Origin: an uncultured Alphaproteobacteria bacterium
Lineage (GTDB): Bacteria > Pseudomonadota > Alphaproteobacteria > JAGOMX01
DNA length: 64,000 nucleotides
Direction: 5' to 3'
NCBI GenBank assembly: GCA_963780985.1
Contig: CAWAEF010000015.1
Coordinates: 6,839-70,838, forward strand
Below, piece after piece: positions 19,627 to 22,095 of this stretch. The notes under the pieces are model-generated. The model saw only the letters and a program-made list of their open reading frames with translations. It searched no databases and had not been told where the DNA came from. Every line of letters begins with the position of its first letter. Position 1 is the stretch's first letter. The position numbers and the translations under genes are program-made.

Positions 19627-22095
19627 TCATTTCCTCTTCAGCAAGGCGTATTTAAGTACTTCCGAAATGTGTGAAACCGGGATTATTCTCATCTGATCCT
19701 TCACTTCTTGTGGTACATCCTCTAGGCTGTCAACGTTGTCCTTGGGTACGAGAGCAATTTTCATGCCGGCCTCATGGGCGGCGATCAGCTTGTTCTTTAA
19801 GGCGCCGACGGAGATTACATTTCCCAATAAGGTTAATTCGCCGCTCATGCATATATCTTTCCGAATGGGGATCTCGCCCAGGGCGGATACCATGGCCGTG
19901 GCGATGGCGGCACCTGCTGATGAGCCGTTCTTTTCCGTTTCCGTTTGTAGGAAATGTATATGAACGTCTTTGTCCGTAAAATGCTCATCTTTGAGGTTGT
20001 AGCTCCCGGTCAGCATTTTAACAACAGTCCAGGCGACTTCAATGGATTCAAGCACGCTTTCACCGAGATTGCCGGTTCCTTGGGCTTTGCCTGCACCTTT
20101 AGTTGCTGCCACTTCTAGGCCGCTGAGGGAGCCACCGCCGCCTCCATTTGCAAGAATTGAGATATATCCAATGGTATCTTTTTCTGCAACTTTGTGAGGA
20201 ATGCGATCGGACCGTCCCAGAATAGGCTGAAGCATATGAGGCTCGACCACCGTTGTGACGCGAGGCCTTCCACTTAACTCATTTTGCGTGACCACCGCGC
20301 GGCAGATCTGACTGATTTTGCGTTCCAGCTCGCGGACGCCAGCCTCGCGGGTGTATTGGGTAATAATATTCTCAAGGGTTTCTTGCTTGATGACGACTTC
20401 ACCTTTGCGCATGTTGTTCTCTAACATCTTCTTCGGAACAAGATATTGTTCTGCTATTGCCAGCTTTTCCATGTGTGTGTAGTTGTCTAACACGATTATT
20501 TCTAGGCGATCTCTGACAGTTGGGTGAATTTTAGTAGCGTCGTTAGCGGTTGCGATAAAAAAGACCTTGGACAAATCAAAGGTTACCCCGCTAACATATT
20601 GATCTTTAAACGCATAGTTTTGACCGGGATCAAGGACTTCTAATAAGGCGTAACCAGGGGATCCGTTGGTTCCATTTTCGCCCAGTTTATCGAGCTCATC
20701 CAGACACAAAACGGGGTCATTCACACCAGCTCTAGTTATGGCTTTTATTATCTCTCCTTGACTGCCTCCCACATAGCCAGGAGCCCATCCTTTTATGGTT
20801 GCTGCATCATTAACGCCGCCTAAGGCCAATCTTTGGAATTTCCGGCCCTTGGCTTCGGCTATGGCTTGGCAGATCGTTGTTTTGCCGACACCGGGAGGGG
20901 CGACAAAGCATAAGATGCTACCTCCGGCGTCTGGCTTTCTTGATTCAACTGCTAAAGATTGAATGATCCGTTTTTTGATCTTTTCCAAACCATAATGATG
21001 CTGTTCTAGAATTCTTTTAGCTTCTCTGATGCTGGGGGCAGCTCCTGAGGTCTTGTTCCATGGGAAAGCAATAATAACCTCGAGTTGGCTTTTTTTAATG
21101 GCGCCGGCTTCGGATCCGACTTCCAGGTCGACCAAATCTTTTGCCAAGTTATGGGCGTATGTATAAACCTCTGGTAGGGATTTTAGATGTTCTATTTTTT
21201 GCAGCCATTCGCCGATCTTGCCGCTTTTGTGTTGCACACGACCCAACACATCTTGAATCGAGTGGCCGTTTCGTATGGATTTCTCAGCTTCGTGCTGTTC
21301 TTGCAGATGTCGCAGAAAAGCTCTGCCCTCGTTATTTTCTGGGTCAGCGAGATCTTCTTCCTCATCGGCCTGCATATCTAAATTGTCCCTGATATCGTCC
21401 AATTCTTGCTTCTTGCGTAAAGCTAGGTGACGAACCAGTTGTCTCGCTTCGGGATCTAGTTTCATGCCCTTGGCCGATGCTAGGATTTCATCGATATCTT
21501 CCACATCCAGCACATCATCATAATCTACAAAGTCTGGCTGATCATGATTCAAAGCCTCTGGGGAAAAAAGCTCATCTGCTCCCCTTGTGTTCTTATCTAA
21601 TTCTGCATAGGCGCCTTCCTTGTACCACCGGCGGGCTTTACGTATTTTCTTGCCCGTATTGGCTGGAGCTTCTGGAAGGTTATCCCAGTTTAGGGCTGGA
21701 TCTGTTGGCTCTCCATTATCTAACTCTTCTTCGTTTTGGCCTGCATCCCTTTGTCTTTTTTTCGCACTGTTATTGCTGGAATTTATATGTTCAATAACGG
21801 TCGGTTCTTCTTCATCATCATCCGAGTTGAACCAATTACTAGCCGTCGGCTGCGGATTCTTTCTTTGGGGCACATTAGTCACCCCTGCAGGTCCATTATT
21901 GCGCTCAGCCGGTGCGGATGACTTTTTACGCGGTGGAGCCTCAGGATTGTTGCTGCTATCCCATGTAAATGGCTGCTGAGGTTCTGGAGCTTGCTCATCA
22001 TCTGAAAAACTAAAATAACTCGACCACACGTCGGTGGTTAAACATGTGCTGAAAGCGAGAGCAAATAGCAGGGAATTGCATTTTCTGTGAGACAT
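19627..22095 (-). CDS. LonA-type AAA+ serine protease paralog; the N-terminal substrate domain is replaced by a signal-like peptide plus an acidic disordered region
   Basis: HYGLEKIKKRI, Walker A PPGVGKTT, Walker B CLDELDK, catalytic GSSAG Ser and GALKNK Lys. N-terminus MSHRKCNSLLFALAFSTCLTTDVWS is followed by about 190 aa of D/E/P/N-rich sequence. Confidence 0.85.
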   Translation of the reverse strand: MSHRKCNSLLFALAFSTCLTTDVWSSYFSFSDDEQAPEPQQPFTWDSSNNPEAPPRKKSSAPAERNNGPAGVTNVPQRKNPQPTASNWFNSDDDEEEPTVIEHINSSNNSAKKRQRDAGQNEEELDNGEPTDPALNWDNLPEAPANTGKKIRKARRWYKEGAYAELDKNTRGADELFSPEALNHDQPDFVDYDDVLDVEDIDEILASAKGMKLDPEARQLVRHLALRKKQELDDIRDNLDMQADEEEDLADPENNEGRAFLRHLQEQHEAEKSIRNGHSIQDVLGRVQHKSGKIGEWLQKIEHLKSLPEVYTYAHNLAKDLVDLEVGSEAGAIKKSQLEVIIAFPWNKTSGAAPSIREAKRILEQHHYGLEKIKKRIIQSLAVESRKPDAGGSILCFVAPPGVGKTTICQAIAEAKGRKFQRLALGGVNDAATIKGWAPGYVGGSQGEIIKAITRAGVNDPVLCLDELDKLGENGTNGSPGYALLEVLDPGQNYAFKDQYVSGVTFDLSKVFFIATANDATKIHPTVRDRLEIIVLDNYTHMEKLAIAEQYLVPKKMLENNMRKGEVVIKQETLENIITQYTREAGVRELERKISQICRAVVTQNELSGRPRVTTVVEPHMLQPILGRSDRIPHKVAEKDTIGYISILANGGGGGSLSGLEVAATKGAGKAQGTGNLGESVLESIEVAWTVVKMLTGSYNLKDEHFTDKDVHIHFLQTETEKNGSSAGAAIATAMVSALGEIPIRKDICMSGELTLLGNVISVGALKNKLIAAHEAGMKIALVPKDNVDSLEDVPQEVKDQMRIIPVSHISEVLKYALLKRK

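Follow-up and report, generated by a model that had tools for sequence, protein, structure and literature searches.

Where would a LonA-type protease act once its N-domain has been replaced by a segment resembling an export signal, and what would fuel it there? This question is raised by a gene in a 64,000-nucleotide stretch of contig CAWAEF010000015.1 (assembly GCA_963780985.1; the whole stretch is termed the window below) from an uncultured alphaproteobacterium, whose genome of ~2.0 Mb is known as a 74% complete metagenome-assembled genome in 31 contigs. AAA+ proteases are considered to be confined strictly to the cytoplasm or the matrix, for there is no ATP outside the cell. The window gene codes for an 822-amino-acid (aa) Lon that lacks the canonical N-domain, bears in its place a signal-peptide-like start and an acidic disordered tail, and comes from a genome that also encodes an ATP/ADP translocase of the TLC family. 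We propose, at roughly even chances, that this Lon is exported, draws on ATP from the host and acts in the periplasm or within the host.

A LonA-type protease without the N-domain

The gene and the parts of its product are arranged as follows, with the basis of each assignment in brackets (ORF, open reading frame; pLDDT, predicted local distance difference test; nt, nucleotides):

19627..22095, minus strand: whole gene for the N-domain-less LonA-type protease of 822 aa, with the start ATG at 22095-22093 and the stop TGA at 19627-19629 (ORF, Pfam, structure alignment)
22103..22106, minus strand: ribosome-binding site GGAG, 7 nt 5' of the lon ATG (read from the sequence)
22021..22095, minus strand: residues 1-25, Sec-type signal-peptide-like segment (heuristic, AlphaFold2 helix 8-24, layout in orthologs)
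21505..22020, minus strand: residues 26-197, acidic disordered region (AlphaFold2 pLDDT<50, composition, ortholog alignment)
21262..21504, minus strand: residues 198-278, helical linker predicted with low confidence (AlphaFold2 model, ortholog alignment)
20998..21261, minus strand: residues 279-366, three pre-AAA+ helices including IAFPWNK (TIGR00763, hhalign, AlphaFold2)
20272..20997, minus strand: residues 367-608, AAA+ module and lid (Pfam, structure alignment)
19630..20271, minus strand: residues 609-822, S16 protease domain (Pfam, structure alignment)
19918-19920 and 19789-19791, minus strand: codons of Ser726 and Lys769, respectively

Pfam recognizes AAA at residues 395-535, Lon_lid at 559-604 and Lon_C at 617-819 (178.7 bits) in this protein, and returns no match to LON_substr_bdg (PF02190) in its 822 aa even at E<=1; PF02190 is likewise absent from all ten relatives scanned from the Lon clade described below. 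TIGR00763 aligns through its profile positions 239-795 only, to residues 279-818, and its score of 510.8 lies below the equivalog cut-off of 608.05, as does that of NF008053 (428.1 against 891). When residues 1-277 from five orthologs were combined into a profile and compared with one of the canonical Lon N-domain, the hhalign probability was 0.2%, and hmmsearch --max gave negative scores. The only match to the canonical N-terminal region is that of residues 278-366 to its positions 239-327 (hhalign 96.7%). In the AlphaFold2 model pLDDT stays below 50 over residues 1-197, with a sole helix there at 8-24; residues 198-290 form weakly predicted helices, and a confident LonA fold begins at residue 294. 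Foldseek searches with this model recovered LonA structures only, with template-modelling scores (TM-scores) of 0.79-0.85 on the target, and residues 329-818 are ~40% identical to the Lon proteins of Yersinia pestis and E. coli (E ~1e-116).

The genome carries three Lon-type genes: a canonical 811-aa Lon with PF02190 that adjoins clpX on a different contig from the window, the window copy, and a 582-aa paralog. The retention of the canonical Lon beside clpX would leave the window copy free for another role. The first-pass annotation of this DNA, made without database searches, had called the gene a LonA paralog lacking the substrate-recognition N-domain and keeping only the last helical part of it, around IAFPWNK. 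Both statements hold: the paralogy and the partial TIGR00763 alignment agree with them, the retained part amounts to three helices (residues 279-366), and the profile searches on which that annotation had staked its reading found no normal Lon N-domain. Two of the checks it had proposed point the same way. Among the LonA, LonB and LonC hidden Markov models the best score is that of TIGR00763 (510.8), with 113 for LonB and 77.3 for LonC, and the predicted structure shows the LonA fold and no N-domain.

The same annotation had placed the start of the Lon-like alignment at HYGLEK (residues 367-372) and described the enzyme as catalytically intact. The motifs that it quoted are all present, namely Walker A APPGVGKT (399-406), Walker B LDELDK (465-470), GSSAG (724-728) and GALKNK (764-769). 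Ser726 and Lys769 of the catalytic dyad have 42 residues between them, the spacing that is the rule for all Lons (PMC9569914). In an alignment to 6v11/6u5z, the invariant AAA+ columns K405, T406, D466, E467, N518, R530, Y441 and R588 are all present, so that the pore-loop tyrosine (Tyr441), the sensor-1 asparagine (Asn518), the Arg finger (Arg530) and the YTREAGVR motif (581-588) are retained. Intactness thus applies to the dyad, Walker A and B, sensor-1, Arg finger, YTREAGVR and pore-loop residues themselves; it has to be qualified for their surroundings, which bear changes private to this copy near the active site and in Walker A (G399A). The first residue of Walker A is Ala399 rather than Gly, which still fits the pattern [AG]xxxxGK[ST]. 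The protease flanks NGSSAG, MSGE and GALKNK are atypical, and the residue preceding the catalytic serine is Ser725, neither the Pro of A-type centers nor the Asp of B-type ones. The orthologs P0003, P0004, P0010 and P0262 have GPSAG, i.e., Pro, at this position. P0004, P0010 and P0262 are full-length orthologs obtained by homology search and exhaustive phmmer; P0003, a fragment of 627 aa, begins at query residue 196 and hence does not cover the N-terminus.

With the LonA enzymes (endopeptidase La, MEROPS S16.001-type) of E. coli (6u5z), Yersinia pestis (6on2/6v11) and Meiothermus taiwanensis (4ypl/7fd4), the window protein shares the fold, the ATPase motifs, the spacing of the Ser-Lys dyad and the three-helix bundle before the AAA+ module. 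Unlike them, it has neither the LAN/PUA-like N-domain nor the first half of the helical HI(CC) region, possesses a signal-peptide-like start and an acidic disordered tail instead, and has Ser for the Pro before the catalytic Ser and Ala for the first Gly of Walker A. It is best described as a LonA-derived variant, presumably working like LonA, that departs from LonA in three features: the N-domain, the equivalog cut-off and, in this copy, the Pro before the catalytic Ser. Archaeal LonB and LonC likewise join an S16 Ser-Lys protease domain to an AAA+-type module. However, in LonB the anchor is inserted inside the AAA+ module and Asp precedes the Ser, whereas the AAA domain of the window protein is contiguous over residues 395-535 (TIGR00764 113 against 516.6); LonC, for its part, has lost ATPase residues, whereas the window protein keeps Lys/Thr of Walker A and Asp/Glu of Walker B (TIGR02903 77.3 against 678.8).

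An N-terminal segment common to a clade of Lons

What, then, stands in the place of the N-domain? Residues 1-25, on which the first-pass annotation is silent, look like a Sec signal peptide, as judged by a simple sequence heuristic, the features of which are also present in all long-type orthologs: MSHRK (+2) is followed by the uncharged CNSLLFALAFSTCLTT and then by DVWS/S, with V at -3 and S at -1 (the slash marks the cleavage-like position). The same tripartite layout of a positive n-region, 16-28 uncharged residues and small residues at -3/-1, followed by an acidic stretch, is found in the window protein and in P0004, P0010, P0262, P0278 and P0279. The cleavage-like sites in P0004, P0010 and P0262 read ..QSTAS/TFNW, ..TSLAS/WLEE and ..TTALS/SFHL, respectively, and each is succeeded by a charged disordered region.

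The segment that follows in the window protein is rich in acidic residues: over residues 26-210, D+E make up 21% and K+R 11%, giving a net charge of -19, and an internal repeat FTWDSSNNPEAPPRKK / LNWDNLPEAPANTGKK begins at residues 43 and 135, with PEAP occurring exactly twice. The tail proper (26-197) displays the aromatic-acidic motifs YFSFSDDE, FTWDSS, WFNSDD and FVDYDD, together with the basic clusters KKRQR (111-116) and GKKIRKARR (148-156). This bears out the earlier description of residues 26-210 as acidic with an internal repeat; the label of low complexity does not wholly fit, as the orthologs share three blocks in their N-terminal regions. These are RK..WY..G.Y..L (152-166; RRWYKEGAYAEL at 155-166 in the window protein), DI[DE]EIL...G.x.D..AR.L (200-220; DIDEILASAKGMKLDPEARQL in the window protein) and EW..KIE. 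The region is otherwise unalignable among clade members, and a homolog search with residues 1-335 only returned the self-match alone, the region being too low in complexity for word seeding. A genome-wide scan for proteins combining a signal peptide with a charged disordered region gave only ~8 candidates and no large effector family with a common leader.

In trees built on the AAA+-protease part, 15 N-domain-less Lons with a signal peptide or an N-in anchor form one clade, with support in the Shimodaira-Hasegawa-like approximate likelihood ratio test (SH-aLRT) of 99 in IQ-TREE and 98 in FastTree. The window Lon groups with G001_C64/P0003 (support 97-98), and the canonical Lon of the same genome sits among other alphaproteobacterial Lons, apart from the 15-member clade; a recent duplication of the genome's own Lon, which we also considered, was rejected on account of this separation. 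Across 401 alphaproteobacterial genomes sampled, matches above the level of canonical Lon were found in the genus of the window only; the order to which the source genome belongs holds six genomes. In sister genomes of the genus, as many as four extra N-domain-less Lon copies occur. The 582-aa paralog of the source genome (G000:C19:9922-11667; L002 1492-3240, minus strand) also lacks the N-domain and has a single hydrophobic segment, MLKKVFYGLLSMLLFVLILEHF, with a short linker. Conserved within the genus, it occurs as a tandem duplicate in the genome G001, with one TAG flagged inside the second copy. A search of the genome contigs for related loci yielded one irrelevant AAA match.

All 15 clade members have a positive n-region and a hydrophobic core directly after the start codon, and in every one of them the flanking charges are positive before the hydrophobic segment and acidic after it. 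By the positive-inside rule, this arrangement would place the Lon body outside the cytoplasm; in the short paralogs, a transmembrane segment with a positive N-flank and an acidic C-flank is predicted to adopt an N-in/C-out orientation. The presence of an export or anchor segment throughout the clade further indicates an old conserved feature rather than a mis-called start. The first-pass annotation had surmised that loss of the N-domain implies either a different substrate set or a different location, and of the two it is location that the putative signal peptide at residues 1-25 and the segments of the 15 clade members specifically favor.

These features of the N-terminal sequence point away from a soluble cytoplasmic location. 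The contrary view would hold the window protein to be an ordinary soluble cytoplasmic Lon variant, the N-terminus of which has no targeting role, with the acidic tail serving as a platform for substrates or adaptors. Its AAA+ and protease parts do resemble standard LonA, and LonA is described as soluble and cytoplasmic, as is LonC, with LonB being membrane-bound (PMC9569914). Nevertheless, such a variant sits poorly with the positive n-region and hydrophobic core kept in 15/15 clade members despite unalignable sequence, and with a neighboring exonuclease that has the same layout in three lineages, and we regard it as improbable.

A second possibility is a membrane-tethered Lon that faces the cytoplasm, in which the hydrophobic helix would remain as an uncleaved anchor and the tail would act as a spacer, with the enzyme using bacterial ATP in the manner of FtsH or LonBA. 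The problem of an ATP source disappears under such an arrangement, and the long hydrophobic segments of the short paralogs are more anchor-like than cleavable. There is also a precedent in LonBA of the Firmicutes (the "LonB" of Bacillus subtilis), an N-terminally anchored Lon with an A-type center (PMC9569914), which resembles the window protein in lacking the LonA N-domain and in having an N-terminal hydrophobic segment. Unlike the window protein, LonBA has been found in Firmicutes only, and its anchor is presumed to leave the catalytic parts in the cytoplasm; the flanking charges of the window protein predict the opposite topology, and its AAA+ module is LonA-like (TIGR02902 74 against a cut-off of 723). 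The window protein is not a LonB, LonC or LonBA. Against a cytoplasm-facing tether stand the reversed flank charges in every clade member, which by the positive-inside rule put the C-terminal part outside, the short h-regions and AXA-like cleavage motifs of the long-type members, and the low scores with the LonB and sporulation-LonB models (TIGR00764 113 against 517; TIGR02902 74 against 723). We consider it unlikely.

Host ATP, a partner exonuclease and the case for export

An exported Lon would need a source of ATP. The genome codes for a full-length TLC ATP/ADP translocase (593 bits), and such a gene is present in 5/5 family relatives as opposed to 0/14 free-living control genomes. TLC translocases are a mark of obligate intracellular energy parasites, which swap their own ADP for host ATP. 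The source bacterium and its family relatives are thus probably energy parasites with host ATP in their periplasm and surroundings; indeed, before a TLC translocase can import it, host ATP must pass through the outer membrane and enter the periplasm. A second TLC gene is represented by a fragment with five TAA stops (G000:C7:152-724, plus strand), probably a pseudogene. Elsewhere in the genome, a 514-aa protein (G000:C3:262731-264275, plus strand) combines a signal-peptide-like start (..LLTSPSSAS/Q) and internal hydrophobic segments with a C-terminal AAA domain (GPPGLGKT) and is possibly another non-cytoplasmic ATPase.

Immediately upstream of lon, the window contains a second gene of the same apparent unit:

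22174..24822, minus strand: DEDDh (RNase_T-type) exonuclease, the upstream partner, split into three ORFs
22137..22161, minus strand: hairpin GCAGCAGCC-N7-GGCTGCTGC between the exonuclease stop (22174-22176) and the lon start (read from the sequence)

A DEDDh exonuclease gene lies directly upstream of an N-domain-less lon, on the same strand, in three lineages including that of the window. In two relatives (GCA_041738135.1 and a Logan contig) it is intact as a single ORF of 686 and 694 aa, and in all three lineages the exonuclease, too, opens with a predicted signal peptide and a disordered region rich in charged residues. The orthologous exonuclease-then-Lon unit of the same genus that encodes P0004 (GCA_041738135.1) has a signal peptide and a charged tail in both proteins, and its Lon part is 53% identical to that of the window protein, a divergence at which synonymous sites are saturated. 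Unlike the window copy, P0004 has a Lys-rich tail (net +6, as against the acidic -19) and keeps DGPSAG/GGLKDK as well as an intact exonuclease, the window copy being more diverged. The hairpin has a perfect 9-bp stem, is not followed by a T-run and sits 5' of the lon ribosome-binding site. Secreted-looking disordered regions, at 24094-24822 in the window and in a 164-aa ORF on G000:C3 (start offset 32716), repeat the strings EGFWGGFSDD, DDFGFG, GFLGNDFADAD and GGFLGNDFDDN; these glycine/aromatic-acidic strings may represent a common short linear motif.

We envisage a pathway in which the signal peptide at the N-terminus would be recognized by the Sec machinery, which would pass the chain, still unfolded, through the inner membrane; cleavage of the signal peptide would follow near Ser25/Ser26. 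The mature protein would then assemble into a Lon-type hexamer outside the cytoplasm and carry out proteolysis in the periplasm, or in the host cell after release, using host-derived ATP that reaches the periplasm of the TLC-bearing energy parasite. In place of the N-domain, the acidic disordered tail of ~270 residues would supply substrate or partner binding, or else localization, and the lon gene would form a unit with that of a DEDDh exonuclease, likewise exported.

Several considerations weigh against this proposal. To our knowledge, there is no extracytoplasmic AAA+ protease, and our literature searches on periplasmic or secreted Lon, Lon in Dependentiae and Lon effectors turned up nothing relevant and no description of an exported Lon. 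The signal peptide is called by a heuristic, and its c-region in the window protein (DVWS/S) conforms less well to type than those of the orthologs (..TAS/ and ..LAS/). In the 74% complete genome we identified neither a route through the outer membrane nor VirB4; of the secretins, the clear one belongs to a Tad/Cpa-like locus and a second is fragmentary. At G000:C13:6027-9096, a secretin apparently split into two ORFs adjoins CpaB-like and prepilin-peptidase-like genes; this is a Tad/Flp pilus locus and not one for type II secretion.

Other adverse points concern the state of the window copy itself. It evolves faster than any other member of the clade, its end branch being the longest (1.01 against 0.22-0.24 in the nearest orthologs), and its neighborhood of active-site residues has been altered in this copy alone, with DGPSAG replaced by NGSSAG and GGLKEK by GALKNK (P725S, D723N, T751S, G765A). 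At 7/86 near-universal columns it shows private changes (G399A, N460D, L527V, G647I, P725S, T751S, G765A), of which three lie next to the catalytic dyad and one falls within Walker A, as opposed to none in the closest orthologs at the same 86 columns. The upstream exonuclease is interrupted by two 1-nt frame changes, at ~23213-23238 (near CTTAAAAGGG) and ~24094-24103, and may be either a pseudogene or the product of assembly error; with a frameshifted partner, the function of Lon in this genome may be relaxed.

The same facts lend themselves to reading the locus as a decaying or functionally shifted relic, with the exonuclease-Lon unit under relaxed selection in this genome and Lon no longer an efficient ATP-dependent protease. 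Besides the private changes and the end branch, ~4x longer than those of the nearest orthologs, one may cite in its favor a partner that is broken here and intact in relatives, and a Lon_C score of 178.7 bits that is the lowest among the clade members scanned (199-263 in the others). On the other hand, the 822-codon frame is fully open and preceded by a good ribosome-binding site, every catalytic and nucleotide-binding residue proper is kept, and the substitutions are conservative (G→A, T→S, P→S, N→D, L→V); moreover, in a metagenome-assembled genome of 31 contigs the exonuclease frameshifts could be assembly errors. We deem a relic rather unlikely.

Recurrent replacement of the Lon N-domain

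The exhaustive search also uncovered LonA-like proteins with two or three tandem AAA+ modules, which rank above canonical Lons. One of these tandem-AAA+ Lons is annotated as being from a Candidatus Dependentiae bacterium. The metagenomic representatives P0259, P0260, P0261, P0265, P0276 and P0007 constitute a separate clade with one protease domain each, most of them with a signal peptide or an anchor. P0276 combines a signal peptide and ankyrin repeats with a double-AAA+ Lon, and P0346 combines a signal peptide and Sel1 repeats with Lon; Sel1 repeats read by eye in P0272 were dropped, as Pfam gave no support for them. Ankyrin and Sel1 repeats are typical eukaryote-interaction modules. A further set of metagenomic LonA-like proteins (P0282, P0290, P0355, P0356 and P0360), without PF02190 or a signal peptide, has a common unrelated N-region of ~250-300 aa (..KGR.F.E....DD..). 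Judging from these architectures, replacement of the Lon N-domain is recurrent, in several cases by a module typical of host-acting proteins.

More broadly, we tentatively suggest, as something rather short of an even bet, that a lineage of Lons, either Sec-exported or anchored so as to face outward, has arisen in ATP-importing obligate intracellular bacteria and runs on host ATP in the periplasm or the host, paired in the present case with an exported exonuclease. The confinement of AAA+ proteases to the cytoplasm need not apply to bacteria living within eukaryotic cells and taking up ATP from the host. A clade with export signals and relatives fused to ankyrin or Sel1 repeats offers a concrete and testable example of how an ATP-driven protease could operate in the periplasm or in the host. 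Were the proposal false, the conserved N-terminal segments would still want an explanation, for example as a new kind of membrane tethering of LonA. Were it true, these Lons would be the first extracytoplasmic AAA+ proteases and would add a new class of enzymes, either effectors or agents of envelope quality control, and they would show how the loss of the N-domain can retarget Lon.

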